Shown one piece after another: positions 3,695-42,131 of a DNA stretch of 64,000 nucleotides. Under the pieces are notes generated by a model. It worked only from the letters and a program-made list of their open reading frames with translations. It was not told the DNA's origin and searched no databases. This stretch comes from Callorhinchus milii (taxonomy: Eukaryota). Numbering within the stretch: position 1 is the stretch's first letter; every line of letters starts with the position of its first letter. The position numbers were made by a program, and so were the translations under genes. The DNA is taken from positions 43,588,001 to 43,652,000 of the forward strand of contig NW_024704742.1 of NCBI RefSeq assembly GCF_018977255.1, read 5' to 3'.

Positions 3695-4324
3695 ATGATA
3701 AGTTCAGCACTGAATATTTCACTGTTACTCAGGGCTCTTGTACGATTGTTTGCAGAGGCACGATTGCATCCTCCTGTCGATTGATGTGGTGTGTTGGACA
3801 AGGTCATGGATTATAATTTTACTCCCTGGTTGCAAACTCCCTGCTACGCTATTTGTAGAGTGAAGTCCAGCAGCACATTGCAAGCCGGGCAGCCGCACGT
3901 AGATGGATTCGATCTCTTCAAGCAGAAGTGTGAAATCGATCCTGCAAAAGGTTTCTTCCTTCTGAGGATTAGAGCCCCTGTGCAATTCGCGTCCATGAGT
4001 TCAGAAATGCGAGCCAAGGCTGCGACTCCACCGGGGGTCACTATAACCCTCTGAATCTGCCTCACCCACTTCACCCTGGAGACTTCCCCAACTTCAGGAT
4101 CAACGGTGGGAGAATTAAATAACATATCAATGCACTGCAGGTGACACTGTACGATTATTTCTCCATTGTTGGCCGGGAGATGGGGGGCTGGTGGTGCATG
4201 CGGGTAAAGATGATTTGGGCAAAGGTGGGTTTTGAGCAGTGTACATCATGGCAATTTTGGGCAGAGCCTAGCATGCTGTTCAATCAAAATCACCAGTAAA
4301 GGTTTTTGGAACACTATGATGTAA
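3695..4324 (+). pseudogene. SOD3: SOD3-like copy A, disabled extracellular Cu/Zn SOD paralog
   Basis: ATG 3695 starts a signal-peptide-like MISSALNISLLLRALVRLFAE, followed by an in-frame TGA at 3782-3784. SOD3 motifs then follow across frameshifts: YAICRVKSSSTLQAGQPHVDG, AIRVHEFRNASQGCDSTGGHYNPLNLPHPLHPGDFPNF (first Cu His->Arg), an internal TAA after GGRIK, VVHAGKDDLGKG and GNFGQSLACCSIKITSKGFWNTMM*. Confidence 0.92.
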
Positions 4325-5049
4325 ATGTAACACTATCGTTTTTCTCAAGAGGTTTTTGGTCTTTTCAATATGTTTGGAATCAGGCACTTAAAATTAAGCC
4401 ATTTCTAATTTTTTTGTGTCAAACCAATGTTTGTTTTTACAGTATCACTGTTGCCCTCTGATAATTTGTATTACTGCAAAACTTGGACAAGCAAAGCAAT
4501 CGCAGTCTTTTGTTTGGAAGATAAACTGAATTATATAAACCTTTAGTCCTAACATTGAAACTCTGAGGCACCAAAGTTATCATGATCCCATCTTTAATTA
4601 TAATTATTATTTAATTATTAAGGTAAAACTCTCATAAGCCTGATCTGTATAAATCAAATAATCGCCTGAGTCTTATATCTGCCCAAGACCCATTCAAGAG
4701 TTTATATTCTATGCAAGTTTGACATAACTCTTGCTTTGCATAATTTATATTAAATGCATGGTCCCAACTGATACAATTTATGTAAGGTTTATTGTATTAT
4801 TAGATTTAAAACCATTGTCTCGAAATGTAAGATCACCAAAATATTTGGAAAATTCATAAAATCAGTCTTAAATTGGAAGCTAGCTTTCTATTGATCTTAA
4901 AATATCCTTCACAAAACCATCTTTCAAATTAAAACTAAATGTCAGCCTTGCTCAGCTGATAGTGCTGCCCCGTGTCCTCTGAACTCTTGCTCCTGCACCA
5001 CAGGACCTTACCTTCCATATCAGAGACAACTGACAACAAAACTCTCAGT

Positions 5050-5330
5050 AGAACCTCATCCTGAAAGATCCACAATGGTCAGAAGAATGAACTGTGAACA
5101 ACAATTAGACAAGTTAGATCATCAGAAGGAATCATATACAGGTAGACACATTTTTAAATGGATTAAAAAAGGAAACACAGAACAATACTTTAGGATGCAC
5201 CAAGACAGTAGAACAGGAGGACATTGGTATAGAGTTGGAATGTGCAAATTCAAGAAAGATGCCAGAAGGGTTTTCTTTACCCAAATGCCAATTAACAACT
5301 GGAGCCATTGTTGGATGAGGAAGGGTGGAT
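5050..5330 (+). mobile_element. Old CR1 LINE 3' fragment, paralogous to 9960-10200
   Basis: Translation DSRTGGHWYRV...KKDARRVFFTQ resembles the CR1 ORF2 C-terminus. Confidence 0.65.
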
Positions 5331-5429
5331 GAAGCCAGCACACCTGGCCTCTACATTCGACCTAAACGTTGTGCTCATATCCCTCCTATTATAGCTTGCT
5401 CGCTCAAGTCTTGTGATGCTGCTCAGGGT

Positions 5430-7700
5430 AGGCAGAGAGGTGGGAGGGCAACCGAAGGCACGATTGAAGAGGAGGGTCTTGAGACCGGCCCTGAAGGAAG
5501 CAAAAGAGGAAGCGAGGCAAAGGAACTGTGGATGGAGTTCCAGAGTGTGGGGGCAAAGAGGCTGAAAGCTCAGCTATTGATGGTAGGTCGGGCGGGCGAC
5601 ATGGAGCAGGCCAGAGCCTGCTGAACGGAGGGAGCGGGCAGGTTGGTAGGGAATTAGCTAGTCGGAGAGGTAGGAGGGGGCAAAACCATGGATGGCCTTG
5701 AAAGTGAGGAAGAGGATCTTGAATACAATCCTCTGACGGATAGGGAGCCAGTGGAGTCGGGTGAGGTTGGGAGTGATGGGGTCACAGAGCCTGGTGTGCG
5801 AGAGTACGTGAGCTGCAGAGATTTGGATGATCTGCAGCTTGTGAAGGCAAGAGTTGGGAAGGCCGATGAGGAGGAAATTTCCATATTCAAGCCTTGATGC
5901 GACGAATGCGTGGGTGAGGGTTTCGGCAGCCTGAAGAATGAAGAAGTGGCGGAGTCTGGCAATGTTGCGGAGGTGGTGGTAGGCTGTGCAGGTCATGGCA
6001 CGGATGTGGGGGAGAAAAGACAGATCAGGGTCAAACAGGACACCCAGGTTCTTGACCGGCTTAGCAAGGATGAGTTTGCAGCCGTGGATGCTGATGCAGC
6101 CAGTGCCTGAGATGCGGAGGCGCTGGCGCGAGCCAATCAGGAGGGCCTCAGTCTTGCTGACGTTCAGCAGGAGAAAGTTGTCCCTCATCCAGGAATTGAT
6201 GTCAGACAGGCAGTCAGTCAGGGTGCCAGTAATCCTGGAGTTGAGGGTGGAGTTGGGTGTCATCCACATACATGTGGAAATTTACCCCATGTCTGCGGAT
6301 GATGTCACCAAGGGGGAGAATGTAGAGAGTGAAGAGGAGAGGACCGTGGACAGAGACCTGAGGAATGCCGCACGAGACAGTGCAGGGGCTGAAGGAGAAG
6401 CCGTTAACTGAGACAAGGTGGAGGCGGTGTGAAAGGTAGGGCCTGAACCAGTCAAGGACAGAACCTTGGAGAGGTTGAGGTGCGAGGAGAGGTGCTGCTG
6501 GAGGAGGATTGACTGGTCCACAGTGTCGAAAGCGGCGGAGAGGTCGAGGAGGATGAGGAGGCAGAGGGAGCCCTGGTCACCCATGGTCAGGATGTCATTT
6601 GTGACCTTGACCAGAGCAGTTTCCGTGCTGTGGGCAGCACGAAAACTCGATTGGAGGGGCTCATAGAGGGAGTGAGAGGAGAGGAAAGAGCGAAGCTGGG
6701 AGGCAACGTCTCTCTCAAGGACTTGGAAAAAAAAGGGAGGTTGGAGATGGGCCGGTAGTTGAATAGCTGTGTTGGGTCAAGGGAAGGTTTCTTCAAGGTG
6801 TGGGTGATAGTGGCTGTTTTGAGGGGGGTAGGAACAGTGCCAGATGACAGGGAGAGGTTGATGATGTCGGCGAGTAGTGGGGTAACAACAACAACAACAA
6901 GATTGCATTTATAGAACGCCTTTCACGTCAGGAGGACGTCCCAAGGTGCTGGACAGTTGGGTCAGGACCCGAGCAGGGGGAAATGGTCAGGGTGAGGGGA
7001 GGGAAGGGAGGGAGCGAGGAGGTGGTAGAGAGTCGAGAGGCGAGCTGAAGCCACGGTTGAAGAGAGGTGGAGCTGGGATTTAAGGAGAGGGGTAGGGATG
7101 GGGTCCAGTGAGCAGGTGGTGGGCTTCATGGAGGATACGGTGGTGATGACAGAGGAGGGAGTGACAGGTTCAAAGGTGTGGAAGGAGGGATAGGTAGTGG
7201 TCGGAGTGTGGGGGGACGAGGGATGTAGGGAAGGGGTGGAAGTCGGGAGGGCAGTGGCAGGATTCCCTTGATTTTGGACTCGAGGAAGTCCAGCATTGCC
7301 TCATAGTGGGCGAAGGAAAGAATCTGCGGGGCATGGCGGGGAGGGCGGAGGAGCCGATTGGTGGTGGAGAACAGGAGTCTGGGGTTGCCCTTCGCCTCCA
7401 GGATTAACCTGGAATAGAAAGACGATTTGGCCGAGGTGAGAGCCGAGCGGTAGGTTTTGATGTGGTCCAGCCAGATGTGCTGGTGGACCATTAGGCCAGA
7501 TTTGAGCCAAGTGCATTCAGCAGCCCACACCTGGCCCTTGATCGAGCAGAGGTGGCTGGTGAACCAACGTGAGGATCGGGAATAGGAGGCAGTTCGGGAG
7601 GTGAGGGGGGCAAGGGTGTCGAGTGTGGTGGAGAGGGTGCCGTGGAGGAGAGTAAACTCAGAGGATGCGTTGGTGAGCCAGAGAGGGAGGAGCTCAGAGG
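5430..7700 (-). mobile_element. L2 LINE fragment with a short nested L2 3' end at ~6885-7060
   Basis: ORFs 5658-6269, 6282-6584 ([12 protein letters not shown]), 6587-6796 (NYRPISNLPF) and 7126-7530; (AAC)n-tailed insert at ~6885. Confidence 0.9.
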
Positions 7701-10369: not shown

Positions 10370-10537
10370 GTAGAACTTTCAAAGCTATATAATTCAGATC
10401 TTGCATTGACCCAGAGACAGCGGGCGCCTGAAACACCAAGTAAGGAATTATACCTGGTCACTGAGAACGAAGAGACGAGATCGGTAAATTCTGCAAAAAA
10501 TTTGGGAAGAAGGTTTGCCGCTGAAATAGAATCGACA
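10370..10537 (+). promoter_or_regulatory. Conserved upstream module of copy B
   Basis: ctttcaaagcTATATAAttcagat (TATA-like, 10386-10392) followed by the shared leader ending gctgaaatagaatcgaca-ATG. Confidence 0.45.
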
Positions 10538-11158
10538 ATGAAAAGTTCTGTACTGAGAATTTCACTGTTACTCCAGGCTCTTGTGCCGTTGTTTGCAGAG
10601 GAGGAAGTGTATTTTCCTGACAATTGGCATCAATGGACCGGATTCCAGGACTCGCAAGCTCCCCGTTATGCTGTTTGCAGAGTGAAGCCCAACAATACAC
10701 TGGAAGCCGAGCAGCCAAGTGTACATGGATTCATCCTCTTCAAGCAAGTGCCTGGAAAGAAATTTGCAGAAGGTTTCTTCAGTCTGGGAGGATTCCCACA
10801 GGAACAGAGCGTGCGTTCAATTCACGTTCATACGTTCGGAGATGTGAGCAACAGCTGTGCCGATGCCGGGGGCCACTATAACCCTCTGAATCTGCCTCAC
10901 CCATGTCACCCTGGAGACTTCGCCAATTTCAGGACCAACGCTGGGAGAATTGAAGAGCATCGCACTACACTGCGTGTCACATTGTTTGGATCTTATTCGA
11001 TTGCTGGCCGAGGAGTGGTGGTGCGTGAGGGTGAGGATGATTTGGGCAAAGGTGAAGATTTGGGCAGTTTACAGCATGGCAATTCTGGGAAGAGACTGGC
11101 ATGCTGTTCAATCGAACTCACTAGCAACAGTTTATGGGACTCAATGGTGCCTGAATAA
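10538..11158 (+). CDS. SOD3: SOD3-like copy B, 206 aa, secreted, fourth Cu-ligand His replaced by Arg
   Basis: Signal peptide MKSSVLRISLLLQALVPLFA; motifs YAVC, IHVHTFGD, GGHYNP, HPCHPGDF, GRGVVVREGEDDLG and GNSGKRLACC. Start chosen by homology to the other copies; the ORF track opens upstream at 10343. Confidence 0.92.
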   Translation: MKSSVLRISLLLQALVPLFAEEEVYFPDNWHQWTGFQDSQAPRYAVCRVKPNNTLEAEQPSVHGFILFKQVPGKKFAEGFFSLGGFPQEQSVRSIHVHTFGDVSNSCADAGGHYNPLNLPHPCHPGDFANFRTNAGRIEEHRTTLRVTLFGSYSIAGRGVVVREGEDDLGKGEDLGSLQHGNSGKRLACCSIELTSNSLWDSMVPE

Positions 11159-13564
11159 CCAATGATCAAATTTGCACGATCATTTTTATTAACATGTTGG
11201 ATAATTCGACAGCCCAGCAATAATAATAATAATAATAATAATAATTGCATTTGATATAGCGCCTTATCATGTCATTGAGACATCTCATGGAGCTTCACAG
11301 AATATAATGTGAAGTGAATTGAATTTGTATTTTATGGGCAATTTGCTTTGTAGTCCCCCACTAAACTAAAACAAAACCATTTCCAAATATTTTACAGTTA
11401 TATTACTCCAGAATTTCAGTAAGACATTTGAGTCCTTTATGGAGCAGAGAGACTTGTATTTTTGCCTGTGTATTGAAAGCAATAGGCCTGACATTTTTCA
11501 GTCTTAGGCTTAAAATCATTGTCTTACATTTTTAAGATCATGCAGAATTTTTAGAAAATCTTGGAAACTTGTTTTCTAAAGTTCTTAAAAAGATCTGTGC
11601 CAAACCAGCTTCCAAATTAAGACTGAATTTGAAGTTGAGGATTTTCTAAAATTCTGCACAATCTTACATTTTATAGCTTATTATTTTATCAAAAAGATTT
11701 AATGCTTCATATATCAGTAATTCTAGATTTAATAAATAATAATCCATGCATTTGACCACTGAGTTTACTGTAAAGTATAATGATTGCATTTGTAAATGTA
11801 TGTAGCAGCCAAATTGCACACAGTCCCAGGACCACAAAATGAATGATCAATTTCTTATCTGGAGGTTTGATGGCCATCGCACCTGGAAAAAATCTCTTTT
11901 TAAATAGTGCCATGGGATCTGTTGCAGTCTCAGGAGTCTGGTTCCTGAGCCAGGCGGGTCCGCAGTATTCCAAGGCACCCCCGAAGACAGCACAGCCAGC
12001 CTGGCTCATTGGCAAGATCCGGAAGGGCAGACCAGTGACTCGGGGTAGGGAGTCATCCCACTCAACTCCTGTTAACTCTGCAAGCCAATGCCCTAATGGG
12101 TAGGGTGGTGCTAGCTGGACAAGCAGTGGGAAAGCTTGCCAAATCCCAACATGGGGCAAGAACCTACAACCTTCTAACTCAAATGAAAATGCCAGGCTGG
12201 CACAATTTTACTTTAATATTGTAATACCAAAGACACAAAGATTCGCATTTGAAGATTTGTTTATGCAAAAAGATACATAAAGCACAGACAAATAATTATT
12301 TAATTGCCAGACTAATTGAGTGATTGAAGTTGTTTTCTTCATGTTATGCACTTTGTTGGAAAATGCTGTGTGCAAATTGGCAGCCTACAATATACATTGT
12401 CACTACACTTTATAATGAATCCCATAAAGCGCTTTACAACATTTATTGATATCTGAAAGATGCCATATTAAACGCAAAGATTATTTATTATGTATAAATA
12501 ACACAATAAGAATGGTGCATTTGCCATTTAGTAGTGAGATAACAATTTATCTTTAAAAAGTCAATAATATGGTTATATTTTGGGCCTATTCTTTTTGAGT
12601 TTATTTGTAGTCAGCAATATTGGAATTAATACTGAGCATAATAAAGTGTTCACTGTACCTTTAAAGGGTCAGCTATAGAATTATAGGAAAGTGTGTGTGA
12701 AATCTGTAATATCGGAAATATGAGTTGCAATTAGTTGCCAGATTTAATTATATATAAGCTACATGAAAAAATAATATGTGCTAAAGATCAGAAACTATAA
12801 TTGCTTTGTTTTCTGAGAAACATGATTTTACATTTTTTAATAAAAATCCTGAATTATTTTCCTTCTTTTTTATTTGGCAGTTAGTATAATTGCATCCTAG
12901 TGTCCAGTTGAACACAAATTTAGTTAAGCAAATGATAACTGTGAATCTTCACCAAACCCTACACATCTCCCCCCTTCCCCCACCCCATATTTTTTCAGGT
13001 GAAGCCACGGGATTGCTGATGTTCAAAGTGGAAATATCACACTGGTGACAAAGGGTTCCAAGGTCGATAAATTTACGAACCTTAACATGAAGGAACATCT
13101 TATTCTCATGTGTTTCGTGATTTGGAGAATTGCCTTGGAGATAGAAGCAGATCAGATGGAACTTTACTCTCTTTTTAGTCGTTTTATCTATGACCTGTGA
13201 ATCCTTGATACTGACCCTACTGTTACAAAATTATAGGAAACCTAAGCTGCTTCCAATTGTTTATTTGGCTTCACCGCTAATGTGAAGTGCTTCAGGACAA
13301 TACTCTGCGTGAATGGCAGTATATAAATGCAAGTTGTTGTTGTATTTAAGAAGAGCTTGATGTGACTCCTAACTTTACAGGGGGTTAAAATTCTGGTAGA
13401 TGAATGTTGAAAGAGTTTAATGGCAGCACTGAGATATTATAGTAGAGGGGCACATCAACATCACTATCCAGCAGGTGAGAAATGGCACCACCAGTCACAG
13501 CCTGGCATACAAGACCTTCGCCAGCATAATTATAGGGCTCAACAAGGATGTGGCATCTTGCAGA

Positions 13565-14105
13565 CAATAACAACTTGCATTTATATAGCCTCTTCACAGT
13601 GGGTAGCATCTTGGAGCACTTTACAGTGGTGGAGCTTGACGCTGAGCCAGGGAGAGTGGGGAGGTGACTGTAGGCATAGTCGAAGAGGGAAATCTTCAGG
13701 TATGATCTGAAGATGGAGAAAGAGGGGGCAAGGCGGAGGGATTGAGGATTGAGAAAAAAGGTTCCGTAGTTTCGGGGCATAGTGGTTGAAGGCACGGTTA
13801 CTGCTGGTGGAGCGGAAGGGATAAGGGATATGCCGGAGGCAGTTGAGCGGAAGTGGCGGGTAGTGAAGTGGGAAGTAAGCGGATCAGAGAGGTAGGGAGG
13901 TGTCAGCACATGAAGTGATTTGTAAACAAGTGTGAGGATCTTGAAATCGATCCGTTCTGTGGCAGTAAACCAGCGAAGCCTTCCAAGGACTGGGGTGATG
14001 GGGATGCAGAGTTTTTTGTGGGTGAGGACACAGTTTTGAATTCATTGGATTCTGTGAAGGGTGGAGTTAAGGAGACTGGCGAGGAGGGCATTGGAATAAT
14101 CAAAG
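13565..14105 (-). mobile_element. L2 3' fragment
   Basis: ORF 13385-13909 (PPYLSDPL...LRLAPSFSIFRSYLK) and an L2 tail. Confidence 0.8.
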
Positions 14106-15509
14106 TGGGTGGGGGGGGGGGTGGTGGAAGTGGCAAATGTGTGGATAATGGAGGAGCTTCCAAATGCTAAAGGGCAGATTTATGGTTATGCACTATTTCT
14201 TTCAGATTTAATGCACTCAGGCTATGTCCTCTTATGTTGCATCTTGTGTCACCAAACATGTCCCACCTTATCAATGTCTCACACAGCAGTTTTGAACAGT
14301 AGGTAAAACTCCCCCAAAAAATTACGTTTCATGGAGTCATTAGAGTTTTAATACATGCCAGGCCAGAGGAGAGGAACTCCTAACCACAAAACTTAATGTT
14401 AATATTTTCAAGCAGAGATAGATAGATATATGTTAGGTCAGGGTATTAAGGGATATCGGGCAAGGGCAAGTAACTGGACTTGAAGTACAGATCAGCCATG
14501 ATCTTATAAAATGGCGGAACAGATTCGAGAGGCTGAATAGCCTACTCCTGCTTGTATGTTTCTAATTAGAGAACACTTGGAAAAAGAAACATCAGCAGAT
14601 TTATAGAACTTTAATACATTAATATTATTTAATGCACATAAAACTCTCTTCCTGTTAGGAAGGGAGGAAAGCATCAAAGTTAATACAGAAACATTAAAAA
14701 GTACATTGATCTCTGCTAACAAAACTCTGTATGGCTACATTTCTTGTCATTACAAAGCATTACCCATTGCCCAAATAACATTTCCCAAAATATTTTTACA
14801 ATGGTAATAATGGTAAGCTTATGACAATCACTGTGATCATTAGTCTAATGTGATACATCTGAAGAACAGATGTTCAGCGAAGGTTGAGGTTCCTTTATTG
14901 TGACAGACGATGATAAAAGCTGTTGTAGATACAGTTTCTCTTCCACTTGAGAGACAAACCAATGTCAGTTTCTCAGATGTTTAAACAACAACTTCCATTT
15001 ATATAGCATCCCTTACACAGTGCTTAAAAGTTGCTGAACTGTGAACGTGATAGCAACACAGGTTAATGAGATGCCAGGAGCAGATAGGGGAGGGGGTCAT
15101 TTGAGGTAGTTTGTATTCGGGTCCTTCAGATGCTCCAATTCCCGCTTTTAAGACAATAAGATCCACACACACAGGTCTGTTCAGAAGAAGCTCTTAAAGA
15201 CACAGATAAGGACATCAACTTGAAGACATGTCTTGCTATGATTACCTGGAAATTTCAGACTACCATATACTGTACAATCTTTACAGCAGTTAGTCACTTG
15301 AAATCAAAACCCCAAGATCCAATTGACCAATCATGGATATGGTATCAGAGTTACACAGTGATGTCAAGAAGTTACCGACTTTTAGACATCTCACATAATT
15401 CTCAGAGTATTTTTGCACATCTTCCATGCATAAACTTACTATTACTGAAAGTCTGGGATTTGTGGCACCTGTGTTTAATGCTGGGAAAAAGAAGACGTAA
15501 TGAATTTTG

Positions 15510-16345
15510 GCCATCAAGTCTTGGATGAGAGCTAACTTTCTTCAGTTGAACGTCAACTGGACCGAGACTCTCCTGATTGGCCTCCACACCTCAGGTGCTG
15601 ACAGCATCACCATCCATGGTTGCACACTCCACCTCACTAAGCCAGTCCGGAACCTTGGAATCTTGTTTGACCCTCAACTATCCTTTCTACCCCACATCTG
15701 CGCCATGACCCGCTCTGCCTTCCCCCACCTCCACAACATTGCCCGCCTCCACCACTGTCTCACATTGCAGGCTGCCGAAACCCTCATACATGCCTTCATT
15801 ACGTCAAGGCTTGACTGTGCAAACTCACTGCTTGTTGGCCTCCCAGACTCCTCCCTCCACAGGCTGCAGATCATCCAGATCATCCACCCTCATCCTTGCC
15901 TAACTTCACTGGCTTTCCATCACACAGAGGATACAGTTGATGATCCTGGTCCTCCCCTTCAAAACCCTTCGCGGTCTTGCTCCCCCCTGCCTCTACGACC
16001 TCCTAACACCTTACCATTCTGTTTGCTCCCTCCGCTCAACGGGCTCCGGCCTGCTTCATGTCCCCGCCTTGCTCACTATCGGCGTGCGGGTCTTCCGCCA
16101 CTCTGCCCCCACCCTCCGGAACTCCATTCCGCAGTCACTCCGTCTCATCCCCTCCCTCGCCACCTTCAAGACCCACCTCAAGACCCTCCTCTTTGACGTG
16201 CTTTTGATCTCCCTGCTTCCCCCCCTTCCCGCCAACCTCCCCCACCCCAACCCCAGCTCAGGTTCATAACTCTGTCTGTCCATCGCCTAGGGTCGTCTTC
16301 CCGACGTGAAAGGCGCTATACAAATGTAATTTTGTTGTTGTTGTT
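15510..16345 (+). mobile_element. L2 3' fragment with (TTG)n tail
   Basis: ORF 15507-16196 IKSWMRANFLQLN...AETLIHAFITSRLDCANSLL. Confidence 0.9.
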
Positions 16346-16779
16346 GATGTGATATGCTTTACCCACCAGCCAGGATAAAAAAATCTGCATACCTTTTTAA
16401 AGCTAGAAAAAACCTGAAAGAATCCAGAGTTCAGCGATGTCAATTATTTTTCATTTCCAGACACCAGATCCTGTAATAATAATAATAATAATAATTACTA
16501 TTGATATAGCACCTTTCATGTGTATTTTGCATGAGAATGCGGCAGCTAATTTGTTCATAGCAGTATCCCACAAATGCCATGAAGTGAATGAATAATTTTA
16601 TAAGGGAATTGTTGGACAGGACACAAAGAGAATTTCCCTTCTGTTTTTGAATAGTGACATCTCTTCAATCCAATTTGTATACAAAGAACCAAGGTCAATG
16701 GTTTGTATTTCAAGGTTTGTTGGACATCAAGAACAAGCTTTCTTTCTTTTGAATACTGGCACAGATCTAGGTACCACCA

Positions 16780-17026
16780 TTTATTTCCATTCTCCTCCTC
16801 CTCTTACTCGGTTGAATACATTCTGGATGAAAATAATTAACTTACAAAGGCCAAGTGCAAATAAAACAAGTGATGTGTGAAACTTGCAACATTATATAAT
16901 TCAGATTGCCACACTTAGCCAGAGATAGCCAGTGACTGAGATTCTAAATCTGGAATCAGACTTGTCACTGACCTCACACACGGGAATCGGATCTGAAAGA
17001 GAAGATTTGCCTCTGAAATACAATCA
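16780..17026 (+). promoter_or_regulatory. Conserved upstream module of copy C
   Basis: Pyrimidine tract, ccaagtgcaaataaa, TATATAA at 16893-16899 and the shared leader. Confidence 0.45.
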
Positions 17027-17758
17027 ATGATGAAACGCTCAAGGCTGAGCTTCCTGCTTTTACTCGGGACTCTTGTGCAGTTGGTTGCAGAGGTGCAAGG
17101 TGGACCAATTTTCAAAGTTGGAAGACGTGTACTAGGTGGACGATTTGGAATAGGTGGACGATTTGGATCAGGTAGACAAGGTGGAGGAGATCTCTTAATC
17201 TCCGGACTCAGTAACAACAGTGATCTATTGTTCAATCCTCTTCTTGCAAAGAATCAAGGCCCTGCATACGCCGCATGTAGAATAATGCCAAGCACCACAC
17301 TCAGAGCAGGCGAGCCAGCCATAACAGGATATGCCGTCTTCAAACAAGAAGGACCAAAATCCCAAACAGAGGGCTACTTCAAATTGCAAGGATTTCCTGC
17401 AAGCAGCAGCAAGCATCCAATGCATGTCCATGAGCTTGGATTCTTGTGCGATGGCTGCGTCTCTACTGGGGGTCACTACAACCCCTTCGGTACAAGCCAC
17501 CCCAATCACCCTGGAGACTTCAACAATTTCGAAATAACTGGTGGGACAATTACAAAACGCCTCACTGGTCTCAAGGTGACCTTGTTTGGCATTAATTCGA
17601 TTCTTAGCCGAAGTGTCGTCTTGCATAATGGTGTGGATGACTTGGGACAAGGTGGGGATAGTGGAAGTCTTCAGCATGGAAACTCAGGGAAGCCTATAGC
17701 GTGCGGTGTCATCAGAGTCAGTAATGCTCAGTTTTGGAATTCTATAGCTACTATGTAA
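17027..17758 (+). CDS. SOD3: SOD3-like copy C, 243 aa, secreted, Gly/Arg-rich N-terminal insert, catalytic Arg replaced by Pro
   Basis: Signal peptide MMKRSRLSFLLLLGTLVQLVA; motifs YAAC, MHVHELG, GGHYNP, HPNHPGDF, VVLHNGVDDLG and GNSGKPIACG. AATAAA at 17833 and 18155. Confidence 0.93.
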   Translation: MMKRSRLSFLLLLGTLVQLVAEVQGGPIFKVGRRVLGGRFGIGGRFGSGRQGGGDLLISGLSNNSDLLFNPLLAKNQGPAYAACRIMPSTTLRAGEPAITGYAVFKQEGPKSQTEGYFKLQGFPASSSKHPMHVHELGFLCDGCVSTGGHYNPFGTSHPNHPGDFNNFEITGGTITKRLTGLKVTLFGINSILSRSVVLHNGVDDLGQGGDSGSLQHGNSGKPIACGVIRVSNAQFWNSIATM

Positions 17759-18819
17759 CTGACTGTCAGACTTTCATTATTAGCTTTCTTTAAAAAAATT
17801 GACCAAGTCGATTCTTTTTTTTGGGGGGGGGCAATAAAAGTAAAACCACTCCCAAATATTACATGTAATGTGTACCCTTACTGTAATGTTTCACTGTCCG
17901 GTGGTAACTTGTAATCCCCCAGGACATTGGTAAAATAATTCCAATCTCTGGTTGGATAGAAATATTTGGCTATGCATTTATTTTTATCCACATATTGCAA
18001 TCAATAGAAGTAGTCCTATATGTAACTTTTATATAGGAAGCCTCTAGAAAATATTGAGATTCTGTAGTTATAATCTTATTGAAAGAGGAAAATCCATCCT
18101 CAATAGAGTCCTTGTTTTTTTTCTTATGTAGTTTTGCTCTCCACATCCCATGTCAATAAAAAGCCTACAGGACATTTAGTGTTACAATACTGGCCACAGA
18201 AGGAAAGTTTCATAATAGAAGATTTATTTATATAATGAAATTTAAATCACAGACAAACAAGCAGCTGTTTGCTAGACGAGCTGAATGATTGAAGTTGTTA
18301 CATTGTGCATGAAGATAGCTGCCGTGATTCCTTCTGGAGCGTGAAACTTTATGTCGGGTGCAAACAAATAGATCACCTGTAAAACAATTAGCAATACAAT
18401 ACAATGTAAAACAGCAGAGGTGATCAGCTAACTAGAACTTTCAGTTATTTTCTCTCATCTTATAATGGTAATAATTGATTTTATTATTGGACTAAATTTA
18501 AATTTAATAGCAATGTATGTATGATATGTAGAGCTGTAATTACAATTCACAGATGACTGATGGGCAACTTCCCAAAGCAACATTAATCAATAAATCCTGC
18601 CTTGAAACTGTTACTTAGCCCATTGCTATCATGGAAATTGTCAGGTCTGTTCCTTGACAATTTTGTTTATAGACCAGGATGGGGACATATCGTATCTTGA
18701 AATTGGCTGATATGGAGCAGGAAGCCTCTTTTAAACTAATGGTCTTCATCCCATTGGCAGGGAGATGATGATATAAGGGAAGAAAACTGAAATCCAAAAT
18801 TAGAGTAATAATCCACGAT

Positions 18820-19350
18820 AATAATAATCTTTGCATTTGATACAGTGCCTTGGGACGTCTTCCCGACGTGAAAGGTGCTATACAAATGTAATCTTGTTGT
18901 TGTTGTCTATCATGTCTTCGAGACTTCTCAAAGCGAGTCACAGAATTGATTGTTTATTTTGTGGGTGAAATGCAGCAGCCAATTGCACAAAGCAGTGTCC
19001 CACAAACAGTGGTGGATTGAGTGAACAATTTTTTTTAAGGAATTATTACCACCGGAAAAGCGATCCGCCAATCGACTAACAATTGGGTTCCTACTTACAG
19101 CTAGGTAAACATAGGCGTGTGGAGTAAGGAAACTTGCCTAAAGTTTCGCCCTGTACACATTTACAGGAATTGCAAATGCAGCCTTATTAATAATTTATAC
19201 AAAGTGAGAATATCTTGTTTCAGTATATGAACTTGATGCCTCTCTCTGACTCAATACTTGATGCTTCTCTCTGAATCAAACCCAGGTCTTTTGCTTGCGA
19301 GGCGAGCGCTCTAACCACTGAGCTAGAGCATTCCACATGTGAGCTACAGG
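18820..19350 (-). mobile_element. tRNA-derived SINE, composite or interrupted copy
   Basis: Same body as 49965-50277 (cagccaattgc...cccacaaacagt); tRNA-like head at ~19275-19350. Confidence 0.7.
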
Positions 19351-20259
19351 ACTCCACATACGACTCGCATGTGGAGATCTCTGATATTCAATGTTAATTT
19401 TCAAATAGGTTAAAAGCTATCTCTTTAATAATAAAGCCTCTTGAATTTTCTTTTGCTCTTCTTTGGTCTTCCCCAAAATGATTGAGAACCCATTTTAATA
19501 ATAATAATAATCCTTGCATTTGATATAGCGCTTTTCACGTCGGGAGGACGTCCCATAGCACTTCACAGAACACACTGTAAAGTGAATTGACTGTATATTT
19601 GTGAGCGAATGCGGCAGCCAATTGCGCACAGCAATGTTCCATAAACAGTCATGGATAGAAAATCACCAATTTATTATTGTTTTTGGTTTTGGAGGGATTA
19701 TTTTAGCACAAAGCCCACATTAATTTGTTCACTACATTTGTGTCACAGTTTTGACAATCAATGTCTTGCCAAAACATCTCCTCCAAGTGGTCTCAACATA
19801 TATGGTTCCAGCCTCATTCACTTTGGGAACATGCCACTCAACCCCAATTTATACTGGACTTTCGCAGCAAATTACCGCCAGTAACACAATACGAATGAAG
19901 CATTTATAATAACATACAGAGATAAACATTTATATTTAGAAAAGCACCTATAAGATGCAATCCAAAATACAATACAAAATTACATTTGTAAAGCGCTTTC
20001 ACATCAGGAGGATGTCCCAAGGCACTCGAAGGTTATACAAATATGTTTAGCACCAATCATTTGGAATTTTATTTGTAAGCAGTATTGGAATTAATACCCA
20101 ACCCAACAAAATGCCATGACTTTAATTGCAGCACAGCATTTTTTGGTATATCTGTCAATCCTTCATACGTTTCTTTGCTCTTCTACAGCAACCATTTTAA
20201 TTATGAATGAAAATCAATTCACTTGTGAGGCGAGCTTCCCCCATATCTCCTCAGAGCTT

Positions 20260-25300: not shown

Positions 25301-25469
25301 TTTTGTCCAAGCTCAAGTCTTTACACAATCCCCAAATACCCAAGATTCTGCAGGGAGCAGGGGCAGGACAGCGCGGGGAGGAGCCTGGGCCTACCTTCTC
25401 AGGTACTATAAAGCACGAGGCGGCAGGGAGTTCAGCTAGGGTGTGGGGGGTGGGGCTGTGGGTGTGTGT

Positions 25470-27273: not shown

Positions 27274-27274
27274 G

Positions 27275-28380
27275 ATTCCCTTCAACAAATCCTTGGATTT
27301 TGGGATCGCAGGATTGCAGCCCATAAATGCACTTTGTGGCCCAGTGTTCAAGCTGGCGAATGCAGCACAAAAGGTCCCCAGGTGAGTCCACCAGCAGCAC
27401 AATATCATCTGCAAACAGAAGCGCCGCAACCTTGTCAGAAAGGCTTGGATCAGATACACCCAAGACCTTCCCCCTCGATGCCATCCAACATGTAATTGAT
27501 GAATACTGTAATTAATAGAGTGTGTAACAATGGTCAGCTTTGCCTTACCCCTGTTTCAATAGGGATGGGCTCAGTGAGTCAACTCTCAACCCTTACATGC
27601 CGCGCCTTCAGCTCCCCTCTCGACTCTCTACCCCCTCCTCGCTCCCTCCCTTCTCTCCCCTCACCCTGACCATTTCCCCCCTTGCTCGGGTCCTGACCCA
27701 ACTGTACAACGCCTTGGGACGTCCTCCCGACGTGAAAGGCGCTCTATAAATGGAATCTTGTTGTTGTTGTTGTTGTTACATGGATCTTGGAGCTGGAATA
27801 CACATTCTTGATAAATCCAAGATTTTACCATGTACTCCCATGCTTTCTCGTTTCATCATGAGGGCCTCATGAGGTCAAAAGCATTGCAGACGTCAATGAA
27901 TGCAACATAGGTGTATTTCCAGTTAGCCTTCTAATGTTCTGCAATCTCAGACATATCCACAACCTGCCCTATATATTCCTCGTGAGAACAGAAACTATCT
28001 TTTCATTCCTGATCAAATCATGAGTCTCCAGTGTGTGTGATACATGTGCAGTGATCGTCCAAATCACCACTTTAAGAGCAACTGAAATCAATGAGATCCC
28101 TTCTCAGTTCTCGATGTCACTAGGGTGACCCTTCGTGTGGATAAAAAACAAAATTGCAATTGCTCTCTAGAACACTGACAAAGTGTATGCCTCAGAGAGA
28201 GTCCTGTTGGCCAATGTTAGGAGGGCAGTTCCAAGGGCAGCATAACCATTCTCGATTAATCCCCTCGGAGCAGCTTTTAGAAATTCAGCATTAATACCGT
28301 CCATAGCTCTTCAGGGGTGAGTGCCTTGCAGCTTCAGTTTCCTTATGACGTCAGCTGTAAGAGCAAGAAACCCCTTGGCT
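27275..28380 (-). mobile_element. Old non-L2 LINE RT fragment with a short nested L2 tail at ~27585-27777
   Basis: ORF 27164-27484 VAALLFADDIVLLVDSPGDL carries an RT FADD motif; likely the partner of 24660-25300. Confidence 0.65.
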
Positions 28381-28419
28381 ACATCTGTGTGATCACGCAA
28401 ACCCGAGGACTGACGATGA

Positions 28420-28970
28420 AGGTAATGAGGGACAAAAAGTGATCAAAGAGGATAAAATAGTCAATAGTGTCAAAAGCGGATGAGAGGACAAGGAAAACAA
28501 GGTGGCAGAGGGTGTCTTCACCGTAGAGGTAGAGTACATCATTGGTGCCTATGATGATGGCTGCCTTAGGGCTATGGCAGGGTGGAAAACAGACCAGAGG
28601 GGCTACAGCAGGGAATGGAGGAAATGTTGAGAGCGGAACAGAGGAGCAACAACACATTCCAGGACTAGGAAAGGTAGATTGGAGATGGGCTGGTTGTTGA
28701 AGAGTTTGTAAGGATCAAGGGTAAGTTTTTTGAGGAGGAAATGATGACAGCAGTTTTGAAAGGAAGTAGGACAGTGCCAGAAGAGAGAAACAGGTTGATA
28801 GTATCTGCTAGCAGGGGGCATAGGTGGGGCAATTCGGTGGTTAACATCTAGGTGGGGATCAAGGAGTTGGTGGTGGGTTTCATGTTGGTTATCAGTGTGG
28901 AAGAGGGGCAGTGTAGGAAGATGTAGGGAAAAGGGTGTGATGAAGAAAAGGCAAGACGAGGAAAATGGCA
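28420..28970 (-). mobile_element. L2 RT fragment
   Basis: Encodes QPISNLPFL and LVLSSAFDTID. Confidence 0.75.
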
Positions 28971-29469
28971 ATTTAGCTTCACTTTACCTCCCTGACGCCC
29001 CCTTCTCCCCACCCCAACATTGAAGGACAGTCATAATTTGGTAAGGCTTTCTTCATTTGTACCTCTTTTGAAATCTTGTGAAATGCTTTCTAGTTTCATT
29101 CCAGCCGAGAATGAATCTTAATATAAATTCTTTCAAAGAAGCCTAAGTTCACTGGTATCACATACTACTGTTGTGGACTGCATAATTCCATTGTACACTT
29201 TTATTTAAACTTACCCTTTGAAACTCTAAGCTTTGGAACTCTCTCCACCAATCCCTCAACAGTGGGCCCTCCTTTCTCTCTTTTAGATTACAATTGAAGA
29301 CCTTCCTCTTCGACCATGCTTATTGTTACCCCTTCCCTTTCCCTGGTTCAACGTCAGGCTCTGCCACTGTTAAGGTAGATAACACACTCCGAGACACTGC
29401 CCAGCAAACAGAGCGCTTTATAAATTCAAGTTGTTGCTGTTGAAGGAAAACCTGATGGAGTAAAATAAA

Positions 29470-29778
29470 TGATAATGATAATAATAATAATCCTTGTATT
29501 TTGTATAGTGCTTTTCACATCCTCTAGACGTCTTAAAGAGCTTCACAGAATATACTGTAAAGTAATTGACTGTATATTTGTGGGCGAAATGCAGCAGCCA
29601 ATTGCACACAGCAGTGCCCCACAAACAGTCATGGATTGAGTGACCAATTTGTTATTGTTTTTTTTCTTAAGTGATTATTATCAGTCGTGTGGAGTAAGGA
29701 AACTTACCCAACATTCGCCCTGTCAGGAATTGAACCCAGGTTTCTCGCTTGTGAGGTGAATGCTCTAAACACTGAGCA
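29470..29778 (-). mobile_element. tRNA-derived SINE, near full length, upstream of copy D
   Basis: Same structure as 49965-50277. Confidence 0.85.
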
Positions 29779-29989
29779 AATATGATGTGATGATCAGGCT
29801 TCACACAATACCAATATCTCTATTTAATAATAATAATAATCCTCGCATTTGATATAGCGCTTTTCACGTCGGGAGGACGTCCCAAAGCACTTCACAGGAC
29901 ATACTATGAATTTTACACAGATATCTCCCCTTGTACATTTCTCAATCATGTCTCACAGTTCTGCCTTGGTTGAATAACAAGTTTGTTTC

Positions 29990-30233
29990 AATTCTGCTCT
30001 CACACGGTTGACTAGCTTCTGGTAATAAGACAACTGTAATTTATAAAGACCGAGTGCAAATAAACTAAGTGCAGTGTGCAACTTTCAAAGTTATATCATT
30101 CGGACCCTGCACTTACTCAGAATTAGCCTGAGATGCCAAGTCAAGGAACAAACCTTGTCACTGAGAGCAAAACAGAAGAGATCAGTTGCAACCAGCAACT
30201 ACAATTGGCAAGATTTGCCCCACAATAGAACGG
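29990..30233 (+). promoter_or_regulatory. Conserved upstream module of copy D, near-identical to that of copy A
   Basis: cggttgactagcttctgg...TATAAA (30042-30047)...gttgcaaccagca matches 3473-3652 closely. Confidence 0.5.
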
Positions 30234-30887
30234 ATGATGAAGAGTTCCCCTGGGAGTCTGCTTATTTCACTCGGGGCTCTGGTGCTATCTTATGCAGGGA
30301 TACGAGTGGGTTGTCTACCAGATCCCTTCGCGGGTGCTGGGATTCCTTTGGAGATAGTGTTTAATGAGCTTCTTGCAAAGAATCAAGGCCCTGCGTATGC
30401 TGCGTGTCGAATGTTTCCTAACAAGAATTCCCAACCTGGTCAGCCAAGGATCACAGGACACGTTCTCTTCAAACAACTAGATCCAAAAAGCGGTGTAGAA
30501 GGCTATTTCAACTTGCAAGGATTTCCTTCTAGCAGCATCAAGCATCCAATGCATGTCCATGAGCTCGGATCTGTGTGGGACAGCTGTGAATCCACGGGTA
30601 AACACTACAACCCCTTCAATACAAACCACCCCAATCACCCTGGAGACTTCAACAATTTCGAAGTAACTGGTGGGAAAATTGTTAAACGCCTCACTGGTCT
30701 CAAGGTGACCTTGTTTGGCATTAATTCAATTCTTAGCCGAGGTGTGGTCTTGCATAATGGTGTGGATGACTTGGGACAAGGTGGGGATAGTGGAAGTCTT
30801 CAGGATGGAAACTCAGGGAGGCCTATAGCTTGCTGTGTCATCAGAGTCAGTACAGTTGAGTTTTGGAATTCTATTGCTTCAACTTAA
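30234..30887 (+). CDS. SOD3: SOD3-like copy D, 217 aa, secreted, catalytic Arg replaced by Pro
   Basis: Hydrophobic N-terminus MMKSSPGSLLISLGALVLSYAG; motifs YAAC, MHVHELG, GKHYNP, HPNHPGDF, VVLHNGVDDLG and GNSGRPIACC. The 3' half is nearly identical to copy C. Confidence 0.93.
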   Translation: MMKSSPGSLLISLGALVLSYAGIRVGCLPDPFAGAGIPLEIVFNELLAKNQGPAYAACRMFPNKNSQPGQPRITGHVLFKQLDPKSGVEGYFNLQGFPSSSIKHPMHVHELGSVWDSCESTGKHYNPFNTNHPNHPGDFNNFEVTGGKIVKRLTGLKVTLFGINSILSRGVVLHNGVDDLGQGGDSGSLQDGNSGRPIACCVIRVSTVEFWNSIAST

Positions 30888-31930: not shown

Positions 31931-32694
31931 TGCCACCACATCTTCAAAACTACCATTAGAAATTTACAGGGCAGGAGAAGGCCATTTGTCCCATTGAGTC
32001 AATAATGTCAGTCTCCCCTTTCAAGAAAGTATAACTGGACTCCTTCATGTTTGTGAAATACCACCCCATTTCCAAACTGCCCTTCCCTTCCAAACTTTCC
32101 TAGTTTCACTCTTACCACCATCTTCACTTTGTCTCTTCCGATAGCTTCTTCTCCTATCCTCTGCACAGTCACATCCAATAGCGTCTTCTTCTATCCTCTG
32201 TCCTAAGTTCTCTACACTATCTATATGCTCCTCCTTGGTGACATTATCTGTGGGCAAGGGATCCACTTCCACATATATATGGATGATACCCAATCTATCT
32301 CTCTGCCCCAACCCAATTCAGGGATACCGCTGTTTAACTCATCAACTGTTCTGGATGAGTTTTATATTTCTAAAGCTCAAAATTGATGAGACTGAGGCTC
32401 TTCTGGATGGGTCCAATCAGAGCGTATTTATTATATTATCCTTCCTTCCCTTCCTTAGTTGAATAACTTTTGGGGAAAAAAAATGCAATTTATAAGGAGG
32501 CCAAGAGGAAAAAAAGTAGAGAGCGCAACTTTCAAAGTTCGATTTCTGCACTCAACCACATACAGTTGGTGACCGAGATTCTGAGTCACAAATTTCACCT
32601 CATCATTGATTTACCAAACAATTTCTCGAACAGAGGAAATCAGTTGAAATCTGCAAACCACACTAAATTATTTGCTGCTGAAATAAAATCAACG

Positions 32695-33085
32695 ATGAAA
32701 AGTTCAACATTGAGTTTTATTGCCTTTATTTGCATTTCTTGTGCTGTATTTGCAGAAGTGTGAGGGCATTCTTTTGCAGATCTGGTGAACAAAGCGATCA
32801 TCAAAATCTACACACAGAAGTACAACAAACCGATCTATGCTCGGTGCAAAAATAAAGTCCAGCAACAACCTCGATCTAGGATAGGGTTCTTTTCAAGGAA
32901 GATTTTCCAATCAGCCCCATACAGGATTTCCAGCAGGGAGAAAAAAATCTCCAATAGAGTACTTCAGATTCATGCATTTGGCGATCCGAGTGAATGACTG
33001 TATACGTCCAGTGGTCTGTGGTACAACTCTTTTAGTTTGGGCCACCTTTATTCACTTCAGAGACACGTCCAATTTCACATCGAAG
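32695..33085 (+). pseudogene. SOD3: SOD3-like copy E, heavily decayed and 3'-truncated
   Basis: Same leader as the other copies (tttgctgctgaaataaaatcaacgATGaaaagttca), then MKSSTLSF... with TGA at 32761-32763. Residual frameshifted motifs: KPIYARCK, VLFKED, GFPAG, IHAFGD and GLWYN. No recognisable DDLG/LACC region. End coordinate approximate. Confidence 0.8.
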
Positions 33086-33574: not shown

Positions 33575-34685
33575 AAACAGCAACTACAACAACAAAATTA
33601 CATTTGTATAGCATCGTTCACGTCACGAAGACCATAATCAAAGGTACGGTCAAAGAGGAGGGTCTTAAGATGGGTCTTGAAGGAGGCAAGGGAGGGGGTG
33701 AGGTGGAGGAACCGCAGAATGGAGTGTCAGAGGGTGGGACTAGAGGGAGGGAACGTGACGTAGATTGGAACCAGCTGAGTGGAGGGAGCGAGCAGGATGG
33801 TAGGGGGTTAGGAGGTCACAGAGGTTGGGGAGCAAACCCACGGACAGCTTTGAAGGAAAGGACCAGGATCTTGAACTGTATTCTCTGCGATGACAAGCCA
33901 GTGGAGTCGGGCGAGGATGGGGGTGATAGGTTCACACAGCCTGGTGTGGGAGAGGACATGTGTTGAGGAATTATGGATGATCTGCAGCCTACGGAGGGAA
34001 GAGTTGGGGAGGCTGACAAGGAGTTTGCATAATCAAGTCTGGATATTATAAATCCATGTATAAGGGTTTCAGTAGCCTGCGGTGTGAGACAGTGGCAGAG
34101 TTGGGCGATGTCGCGGAGATGGGGGAAGGCAAAGCGGGTCATGGCACGGATATGGGGTAAAAAAGATAGTTGAGGATCAAACAAGGCGCCAAGGTTCCAG
34201 ACTGGCTTAGTAAGGCGGAGTGTACATCCATGGATGGTGATGCTGTCAGCCCCTGAGATGTGGAGGCTCTGACGGGAGCCAATCAGGAGAGCCTCAGTCT
34301 TGTTGACGTTCAAGTGAAGAAAGTTAGCTCTCATCCAGGACTTGATGTCTGACAGACATTCTGTCAGGACAGCAGTGGTCCAGGAGTCAAGGCTGGAGGC
34401 AGAGAGGTAGAGTTGGGTATCATCCGTATACATGTGGAAATTGACCCCATGTCTGCGGATAATGTAACCAAGAGGGAGCATATAGATATTGAAGAGGAGG
34501 GGACCAAGGACAGAGCCCTGAGGAATCCCGCATGAGGCGGTGCGGGGGCTAGAGGAGAAACTGTTTGTGGAGATGAAGTGGAGACGGTGTGAAAGGTAGG
34601 ATCTGATCCATTCAAGGACAGAACCATGAAAGTGAGTTGAGAGGACAGGCGGTGGAGGAGGATAGAGCGGTCAACAGTATTGAAC
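33575..34685 (-). mobile_element. L2 LINE fragment
   Basis: ORF 33816-34481 HMYTDDTQLY...IKSWMRANFL...SRLDYANSL. Confidence 0.9.
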
Positions 34686-37988: not shown

Positions 37989-38009
37989 ATTTAGATCATA
38001 GGAACCTAA

Positions 38010-40574: not shown

Positions 40575-41195
40575 TGTTTCCTTCCTTTCATCAGTCCACG
40601 ACCAAGGCTGCTTTTTGTCACCTTTGCAATATTGCGCTCCTCTTACACCAGGTGTCTCTTAAACCCTCATACACACCTTTGTTACCTTGCAGCTTGACTT
40701 CTCAAATGCACTCCTTGCTGGTCTTCTTAGTCCTACAATCCATCAATTCTAACTAATCCCAAACTCCCCCACCTACATCCTCAACTGCACCAAACCCCAC
40801 ATGGCCATGATCCTAGTCCTTGTCAGATTCCACTGGTGCCTTGGCTCCTAGTGGATCGACTTCAAAGTCCTCACCATGACCTATAAATCCTTTCACTTCC
40901 CTATGTCAGTGATCACCTATCCCACTCTTCTGCTCACCCTCTCCACTGGGCTAAATGAGGCCTGTCCCCACTCCCTCAGTGCCACCAATGATGGGTGAGC
41001 CTTCAGCTACTGTGTCTCTAATCTCTGGAACTCCCCATATTCTCCATTTCATCTCTTTATCTGTCTTTAAATCCTAAAAACCTAACTCAACCATGCTTGT
41101 GGTCACCTACCCTTTGCTAGGAGTCTGACTGTAATCTTGTGAAGTGCTCGGAGATGCTATGTTACTTGAAGGGCACTATATAAATACCAGTTGTA
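40575..41195 (+). mobile_element. Old L2 3' fragment abutting the upstream module of copy F
   Basis: Encodes AAFCHLCNIA; L2 tail gaagggcactatataaata. Confidence 0.7.
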
Positions 41196-41210
41196 ACAAA
41201 AACTGCTTAA

Positions 41211-41474
41211 TTCTTGTGGTTTCCCCTTCTCCCTTTAGTGAAACCCCAGTACAGATCTTTTGGAATTTCTGGAAAAAACAACTGTAAGTTACAAAAGCAG
41301 TTGTGTAAGCGCAAACAAATCAAAGTGCAGTGTGCATATCTCAAAGTTAAATTGTATGAAACCTATTACCCAGAGACAGTGAGCCTGGACTCAGACTTTG
41401 CTATTGAACACAAACAGAAGCGATCAGTTTGTCTACATCTAAGAAGAAGATTTGCCACTGAAGCCGAATCAATC
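41211..41474 (+). promoter_or_regulatory. Conserved upstream module of copy F with candidate splice acceptor
   Basis: ttcttgtggtttccccttctccctttAG (AG at 41237-41238), aagtgcagtgtgca and the shared leader. Confidence 0.45.
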
Positions 41475-42131
41475 ATGAAAAGCTCAGCATTGAATTTGTT
41501 GCTCTTACTGGTGGCTTTTGTGCAGCTATTTGTAGATGAATCAGAGTGTTGCCTTACCAACCACTGCAATAGGAAGAGGATTAATGATTTAACTGTCCAT
41601 CTGCTTCACCCATTAAGACCCCAGAGAAACCAGCCCACGTATGCCGTGTGTACAGTGAATCCAAGCAACACACTCAGATCTGACCAACCAGCTATAACAG
41701 GACGTGTTCTCTTCAAGCAAGACCATCCAACCAGCACTGTGGAAGGCTTCATCAACCTGAGCGGATTTCTAAGGCACCAAAGTTTGCATGCAATTCACGT
41801 CCATAAGTTCGGAGATCTGACCGATGGCTGCACCTCCACTGGTCCTCACTACAACCCCAATGGTGTGAACCACCCACTTCACCCTGGAGATTTCAACAAT
41901 TTTGCAACCAAATCTGGAAAAATTGTCCAGAGTCTCTCTAACCTCCAAGTGACGTTATTTGGATCTCGCTCGATTTTGGGCCGTGCGGTGGTAGTACACG
42001 CAGGTGAGGATGACCTCGGCACAGGTGGTAATGAGGGAAGCCTTCTGCATGGAAATTCTGGAGCGAGACTGGCGTGTTGTACAATCGGACTCAGCAAAGC
42101 TGACCTTTGGGATGCCACTGTGCACCAATGA
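41475..42131 (+). CDS. SOD3: SOD3-like copy F, 218 aa, canonical extracellular Cu/Zn superoxide dismutase, probable ortholog
   Basis: Signal peptide MKSSALNLLLLLVAFVQLFV; IHVHKFGDLTDGCTSTGPHYNP, HPLHPGDF, SILGRAVVVHAGEDDLG and GNSGARLACCTIG. All Cu/Zn ligands, the catalytic Arg and both Cys pairs are present. It is the copy nearest CCDC149. ATTAAA at 42258. Confidence 0.95.
   Translation: MKSSALNLLLLLVAFVQLFVDESECCLTNHCNRKRINDLTVHLLHPLRPQRNQPTYAVCTVNPSNTLRSDQPAITGRVLFKQDHPTSTVEGFINLSGFLRHQSLHAIHVHKFGDLTDGCTSTGPHYNPNGVNHPLHPGDFNNFATKSGKIVQSLSNLQVTLFGSRSILGRAVVVHAGEDDLGTGGNEGSLLHGNSGARLACCTIGLSKADLWDATVHQ

Follow-up and report, generated by a model that had tools for sequence, protein, structure and literature searches.

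A tandem array of SOD3-like genes in Callorhinchus milii: one canonical extracellular superoxide dismutase and seven intact paralogs with altered active sites

The window analysed here, a stretch of 64,000 nucleotides of the Callorhinchus milii genome that a whole-genome protein search places at C1:43588001-43652000 of the 991-Mb assembly, holds the downstream part of a tandem array of genes related to SOD3, the extracellular superoxide dismutase (EC-SOD). Ten SOD3-like units follow one another on one strand over about 80 kb, in the order U1, U1b, U2, U3, A, B, C, D, E, F; eight have intact open reading frames (ORFs), and two, the pseudogenes A and E, are broken. The full catalytic site is present in one of the eight intact copies, F. 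We think it fairly probable that the other seven are secreted proteins of the SOD fold kept by selection, with probably non-catalytic extracellular roles, and that F is the true EC-SOD. To our knowledge, SOD3 in vertebrates has been treated as a single-copy, strictly conserved enzyme, and a full-text literature search found no description of the C. milii array.

In the explanation that we propose, the SOD3 locus would have grown by repeated tandem duplication to about ten same-strand units beside CCDC149. F would be the working enzyme, supplying EC-SOD activity, and the seven other intact copies would mark a graded loss of the catalytic apparatus, with non-catalytic roles such as metal or ligand binding, as for cavortin and dominin of bivalves. 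A pseudoenzyme or neofunctionalisation reading is plausible from the sequences at hand, and the array would then show the origin of pseudoenzymes by birth-and-death evolution. With its eight paralogs, which range from the full site through the loss of a single residue to complete loss, the series could serve as a natural experiment on the part that each element of the Cu,Zn-SOD site plays, and it might bring to light roles of the SOD fold other than catalysis in a vertebrate. An earlier, sequence-only reading of the window had described a six-copy array with three remodelled paralogs. Its six units lie where it put them, and its span, 3695-42131, runs exactly from the start of A to the stop of F; its counts, however, were too low, as four more intact units upstream bring the array to ten, and the remodelled paralogs are really seven (U1, U1b, U2, U3, B, C and D).

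Active sites of the eight intact copies

Residues are numbered as in human SOD3, counted along an alignment to chain 2jlp_A, and ten positions were scored: H96, H98, C107, H113, H121, H124, D127, H163, R186 and C189. H96, H98, H113 and H163 are the Cu ligands, H113, H121, H124 and D127 the Zn ligands, and R186 corresponds to R143 of SOD1. Passages of PMC8247289 give His46, His48, His63 and His120 as the Cu ligands of SOD1, and describe Arg143 as orienting superoxide and restricting the size of the anion.

F is canonical at all ten positions (HHCHHHDHRC). U1 (HHCHHHDHAC) has Ala in place of Arg186, and C and D (both HHCHHHDHPC) have R186P, to which C adds a change of Cys190 to Gly. B (HHCHHHDRRC) has H163R, with one of four Cu ligands lost and Arg186 and all Zn ligands kept. 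Both positions are altered in U2 (HHCHHHDSSC; H163S, and Ser for Arg186). U3 (SHCQQEDRVC) has lost five of seven metal ligands, H96S, H113Q and H163R being the changes among the Cu ligands, and has Val for Arg186. U1b (GYCIEMSSPC) has lost all metal ligands and has Pro for Arg186; most of its loop after His163, the counterpart of the SOD1 electrostatic loop, is missing. The four Cu-ligand histidines are complete in F, U1, C and D and incomplete in B, U2, U3 and U1b, and the Zn ligands are complete in F, U1, U2, B, C and D, with only D127 left in U3 and none in U1b. Arg186 is kept only in F and B, and the disulfide pair Cys107-Cys189 in all eight. The claim that F alone has all active-site residues, made for the window, is thus true of the larger set as well; the specific active-site changes claimed for B, C and D are those just given, and the ORF listing and the alignment bear out that these three copies keep full ORFs and all Zn ligands.

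Such departures are rare elsewhere. In an aligned control set of 176 SOD3 proteins, which consists of SOD3 database matches and includes the database copy of F, 172 have a fully canonical site. Of the other four, one is truncated and one has C189G; Narcine (P0013) has R186K, and P0173 has H163R, the change seen in copy B. P0173 is a SOD3-like protein of 197 aa from an ENA-sourced assembly. Arg stands at position 186 in 174 of the 175 scorable proteins, with Narcine as the exception.

Judged from these residues, dismutase activity would be weakened in U1, C and D, crippled in B and U2, and absent in U3 and U1b. It could be instead that U1, C, D and perhaps B are working SOD isozymes, the products of ordinary subfunctionalisation by tissue or stage, an explanation that we consider rather unlikely without thinking it negligible. 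U1, C and D have all four Cu ligands, all four Zn ligands and the disulfide pair, and each has a basic residue (K or R) at position 185. Because R186K and H163R occur in SOD3 of other species (Narcine, and P0173 with the same change as B), a single substitution need not end enzyme function, and purifying selection is equally compatible with working isozymes. SOD1 Arg mutants have lowered, not abolished, activity, and U1, C and D, with all metal ligands kept, may still be slow dismutases. The isozyme explanation is nevertheless impossible for U3 and U1b, with five of seven and all of their ligands lost, and it has to contend with the near-invariance of Arg186 in other SOD3 proteins, with the role ascribed to Arg143 in orienting superoxide (in the same passages of PMC8247289), and with Pro186 in C and D, which is a non-conservative change in the active-site channel. 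We continue to favour non-catalytic extracellular roles for the remodelled copies.

Constraint, fold and secretion of the remodelled copies

Several signs of selection are found in the remodelled copies. Third codon positions differ more than first and second positions in all 21 pairs compared. The ratio of non-synonymous to synonymous divergence (dN/dS, NG86 method) is 0.25-0.59 in the 18 of 21 pairs that have a computable dS, although dS exceeds 1 in all pairs except C-D, which makes most of these ratios unreliable. Two pairs, in each of which both members are non-canonical, are informative because constraint there acts on proteins that were already remodelled: C-D, with dS 0.505, dN 0.234 and a ratio of 0.46 (Fisher p 4.5e-5; ratio 0.45 in the SOD domain alone), and U2-U3, with a ratio of 0.38 (Fisher p 1.8e-7).

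The frames themselves point the same way. In neutral simulations with substitutions only (kappa 2, no indels), 6-70 of 5000 trials per copy (0.1-1.4%) leave the frame open when half of the divergence from F is applied; for the divergence of C and D the number is 232-433 of 5000. The starting sequences are those of today, and neither indels nor branches common to several copies are taken into account. A and E, as an internal control, exhibit the breakage seen in unconstrained copies of the same locus.

Conservation extends upstream of the coding sequence. In the nine units compared, about 220 nt ahead of the ATG can be aligned, and the alignment contains a TATA box of consensus GTTATATAATTC besides other conserved blocks. 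The TATA block, 129-169 nt upstream of the start codon, has been lost by deletion in E alone, and its most degenerate form is that of F; U1b has the same upstream blocks, the TATA block included. Upstream identity, 0.48-0.85, equals or exceeds coding identity, and each unit except E has its own conserved block of predicted TATA-type promoter character.

As to fold, seven of the eight intact copies score above the curated cut-off of 28.9 bits for the Pfam family PF00080 (Sod_Cu), B, C, D and F at 92-114 bits. Among solved structures, human SOD3 (2jlp) is the closest to F (E 9.9e-54), and all ligands align. AlphaFold2 models of the two most altered copies have pLDDT 81.6 for U3, whose best PDB match is 2jlp_A (E 1.4e-15, TM 0.84), and pLDDT 79.7 for U1b, best matched by 2jlp (E 1.1e-8, TM 0.60-0.61). 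These models rest on SOD3 alignments, so that a SOD-like outcome is partly built in, and they indicate compatibility with the SOD fold rather than independent proof of it.

In all eight intact copies a hydrophobic run comes after a start of the M-K-S-S type, and the best 12-residue Kyte-Doolittle mean in the first 40-50 residues is 2.1-3.4 in all eight, a measure of hydropathy and not the output of a dedicated signal-peptide predictor. No C. milii copy, F included, has the basic C-terminal heparin-binding cluster; among the aligned sequences RKKRRR occurs in Pongo only, and the six other non-C. milii sequences are likewise without it. The seven remodelled copies have all kept a hydrophobic N-terminus, the pair Cys107-Cys189 and a predicted or Pfam-detectable SOD barrel. 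Open frames, a proportion of non-synonymous differences (pN) below that of synonymous ones (pS), the promoter block, the cysteines and the hydrophobic N-termini argue, on sequence grounds, for selection rather than decay.

A number of points weigh against this interpretation, beginning with the limits on dS, on the simulation and on the models given above and with the similar single changes in SOD3 of other species. Ratios of 0.33-0.59 are relaxed in comparison with those of housekeeping enzymes. U1b, at 22.9 bits, falls under the Sod_Cu cut-off and spans profile positions 2-76 only. No orthologue of the non-canonical copies was found outside C. milii in word-indexed, profile and phmmer protein searches, a result that leaves their conservation over long times and between species unproven. 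With D as query, the word-indexed search returned six matches, two of them from C. milii (D itself and the chimeric model P0125) and four from other species (three named as teleost); a profile of six non-canonical copies returned 85, none of which, besides C. milii's own models, is closer to it than canonical SOD3; and an exhaustive phmmer search with U3 returned its own partial model only, followed by F at 38%. There is also no transcript evidence for any non-canonical copy, a search of sequencing runs with 10450-17800 having turned up no run recorded as RNA that contains it.

These last two results are also what would be expected if the seven non-canonical ORFs were non-functional relics that have yet to acquire a stop or frameshift, and the clearly dead A and E, the eroded active sites and the long branches of U2 and U3 (1.2-1.3 in the tree described below) fit such an account. 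We nevertheless hold it to be very improbable. Relics would leave the frames open in just 0.1-1.4% of neutral simulations per copy, with indels not yet counted, and they would not explain why even non-canonical sisters have a pN significantly lower than their pS, why the third codon position is the most variable in every pair, or why no intact copy has lost the promoter block, the putative signal peptide or either of the disulfide cysteines.

Contigs of four runs guessed to be RNA (X1, X6, X8 and X9) were placed on 10450-30449, where they cover mostly repeats. X1 contigs with a depth of 2.5-2.9 lie over parts of B (10598-11075 and 11373-11541) and over 30083-30252. We rejected these as expression, since their depth is not above the intergenic background: unique intergenic bins of X1 have similar depth (12451-13117 at 2.29), and the contig at 30083-30252 begins before the TATA block of D. 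The bin of copy C has next to no cover. Such cover says nothing on whether the genes are silent.

In the same runs, summed contig depth reaches about 1e5 at 19121-19787 and 21122-21788 in all four, with many joints between both places; the interval between C and D is flanked here by a repeat family of high abundance.

Units, surroundings and history of the array

ORFs were listed under the standard code, and A and E were found by tblastn with the B, C, D and F proteins. All units lie on the plus strand, and the coding sequence is uninterrupted in every intact one. F, the canonical SOD3, occupies 41346-42131, with its degenerate TATA-like block at 41346 and a coding sequence (CDS) at 41475-42131 (218 aa; Sod_Cu 114.2 bits). 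The C. milii entry K4G9Y1 / AFM89989.1 is colinear with F and matches it at 100% identity, and therefore the coding sequence of F has no intron.

Unit B (10384-11158) has the TATA block GCTATATAATTC at 10384 and its CDS at 10538-11158 (206 aa; Sod_Cu 92.4 bits); there is a longer ORF from 10343, the upstream part of which merely happens to be open. Unit C (16891-17758) has the TATA block ATTATATAATTC at 16891 and its CDS at 17027-17758 (243 aa; Sod_Cu 96 bits). Copy C alone has a Gly/Arg-rich insert (GRRVLGGRFGIGGRFGSGRQGGG) directly after the putative signal peptide, at 17100-17200 (residues ~25-80). In unit D (30090-30887) a TATA-like block at 30090 precedes a CDS at 30237-30887 (216 aa, alternative ATG at 30234; Sod_Cu 92.2 bits).

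Pseudogene A (3544-4327; tblastn alignment from ~3533) has a TATA-like block at 3544 and its ATG-equivalent at 3695. It contains in-frame stops and at least three frame changes, its tblastn pieces lying in frames 2, 1, 3 and 2, and read through these breaks it has H96R and R186S. E (32537-33045) is strongly decayed, with its ATG-equivalent at 32695, internal stops and the TATA block deleted. It matches B at 28.8% identity over 177 aa (tblastn, 32548-33045, E 3e-6), and its start-region signature, ending in FAAEIKSTMKSS, is still recognisable.

Immediately upstream of the window, a whole-genome search with copy F located U1 at C1:43550401-43551066 (221 aa; Sod_Cu 100.7 bits), U2 at C1:43574759-43575502 (247 aa; 82.8 bits) and U3 at C1:43583559-43584254 (231 aa; 55 bits). 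U1b, at C1:43562139-43562723 (194 aa; 22.9 bits), was located by tblastn of the DNA taken from the gaps between the upstream units; it is intact but very divergent, and a search with it against the whole genome gave no other match. The N-terminus of U2 is a Pro/Leu low-complexity run (L006:1414-1560), and 3' of U2 there is a long CA-type microsatellite (L006:2158-3300) that reads as His/Thr/Pro repeats.

The array exposes faulty public gene models at the SOD3 locus. Public annotation has U1 as XP_007887367.1, under the name 'extracellular superoxide dismutase [Cu-Zn]-like', and part of U3 as XP_007887369.1, and it contains the exact protein of D (P0124). P0125 (UniRef A0A4W3I5C3; 10538-17758) joins the N-terminal half of B to the C-terminal half of C at homologous positions and looks like a gene-model artefact. 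P0122 (XP_007887238.1, 324 aa; 41157-42131) is F extended upstream through an in-frame leader. The proteins of B, C, U2, U3 and U1b as read here have no exact entry in the protein collection searched, and U1b is apparently unannotated.

Practically no credence can be given to the idea that an assembly error produced the array by placing haplotypes or collapsed repeats next to one another. No sign supports it, the window has only two N positions, and the copies, 24-68% identical in protein and 44-76% in aligned codons, differ by much more than alleles do. In a separate study, four runs contain 74-77% of the sampled words of 10450-17800, and public annotation independently gives U1, part of U3, D and F as distinct proteins.

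The proposal of a tandem birth-and-death family is supported by the eight intact and two broken units, by the spread of amino-acid identities and by a mosaic promoter. The promoter and leader of A (3357-3664) and D (29904-30208) are 81-85% identical over ~320 nt, whereas their coding parts are ~65% identical; by coding sequence, the nearest unit to A is B, and that to D is C. This mosaic points to probable unequal crossing-over or gene conversion within the array. Four mutually related retrotransposon ORF fragments lie between SOD3 units, at 26230-27021 (+), 33816-34481 (-), 15525-16196 (+) and 5658-6269 (-); all four have a common motif, and two have a sub-threshold RVT_1 match (22-25 bits). 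They are possible substrates of unequal recombination.

For the age of the expansion we used a tree of 29 proteins, comprising seven C. milii copies (U1b was left out), 12 elasmobranch SOD3s and 10 bony-vertebrate SOD3s, the latter two groups each forming a starred clade. In the best tree the seven C. milii copies stand on one side of a branch with a support of 79/86, which is not decisive. The alternative in which F joins the 12 elasmobranch SOD3s is 8.4 log-likelihood units worse and is not rejected (p-AU 0.09). An expansion of SOD3 in the holocephalan lineage is our best estimate from these trees, though not a settled one. Other species have one or two SOD3s among the protein matches, as against ten units here.

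Downstream, the minus strand carries exons of the CC149 family (PF09789) at C1:43652142-43668193. They begin 142 bases past the window end, which makes CCDC149 the immediate downstream neighbour of the array, as had been proposed from the window alone; in mammals, too, SOD3 lies beside CCDC149. Within the window no CCDC149 exon was detected, none of the 100 longest of 188 ORF fragments of at least 45 aa in 42200-64000 having a Pfam match. On the other side, some 114 kb upstream of U1, lies an exon of a DEAH-helicase OB-fold domain (C1:43436046), a candidate exon of DHX15. Three matches to a tRNA model (50-55 bits), all on the minus strand, fall between F and the domain exons of CCDC149, at 50202-50273, 54015-54086 and 60123-60194; they may be the heads of tRNA-derived SINEs rather than tRNA genes.

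A genome-wide Sod_Cu search found no second SOD3-like cluster in C. milii. In the same genome, five separate matches to one part of the Sod_Cu profile (positions ~66-110) fall within 43 kb at C4:41122766-41165649, which suggests several SOD1-like copies or a repeated exon, and C7:4388313-4389638 contains one open frame of 748 aa with three Sod_Cu domains that resembles the published SOD4.

Relation to known SOD-fold proteins

The nearest comparison is with vertebrate SOD3 itself. F resembles EC-SOD (2JLP) in the strength of its match, in its uninterrupted CDS, in its hydrophobic N-terminus and in having CCDC149 as a neighbour, and Cys45, Cys107 and Cys189 of vertebrate SOD3 are present. In the best tree the seven C. 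milii copies analysed stand apart from the elasmobranch and bony-vertebrate clades, on one side of a branch. The differences are that ten units stand here instead of one or two, that seven intact copies lack Arg186, metal ligands or both, and that the basic C-terminal cluster of Pongo SOD3 has no counterpart in the C. milii copies.

A SOD-fold domain that has lost its catalytic residues and acts by binding rather than catalysis is known from domain II, the SOD1-like domain, of the copper chaperone CCS. CCS is, however, an intracellular, multi-domain protein encoded by an ancient, single-copy gene, in contrast to an array of tandem secreted SOD3 paralogs; in the array no chaperone domain or CXC motif was seen, without a search aimed at them.

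Among extracellular proteins, passages of PMC10416458 describe SOD4, the copper-only SOD repeat proteins, as SOD-domain proteins of anamniotes, of which C. milii has one, and there SOD4 is defined as a separate multi-domain family alongside a single C. milii sequence, 'Sod3Shark'. SOD4 differs from the array in being a single multi-domain, membrane-anchored protein encoded at another locus, whereas the array consists of single-domain secreted SOD3 paralogs.

The closest likeness in kind is to bivalves. In the parts of PMC6530089 and PMC9118643 that bear on them, cavortin (Cg-EcSOD), dominin and pernin are described as secreted homologues of Cu/Zn-SOD that have no SOD activity and for which metal-binding and defence roles have been proposed, and oyster extracellular Cu/Zn-SOD genes are tandemly duplicated, some of them without Cu ligands. 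The shark copies differ in their independent origin from vertebrate SOD3: they group with it, having each other and vertebrate SOD3 as nearest relatives (in trees without bivalve sequences), and they form a graded series from one residue lost to all. The likeness to cavortin and dominin is thus one of putative functional analogy only. The bolder proposition, that a secreted pseudo-dismutase family has been built from SOD3 in a jawed vertebrate, with seven selected intact genes in a stepwise series converging on cavortin and dominin, we put forward tentatively, as something that could well be true but that we would not yet assert. In chimaeras such pseudo-dismutases may serve as major extracellular proteins of metal handling, defence or the matrix, or they may assemble with the one active SOD3 as its partners.

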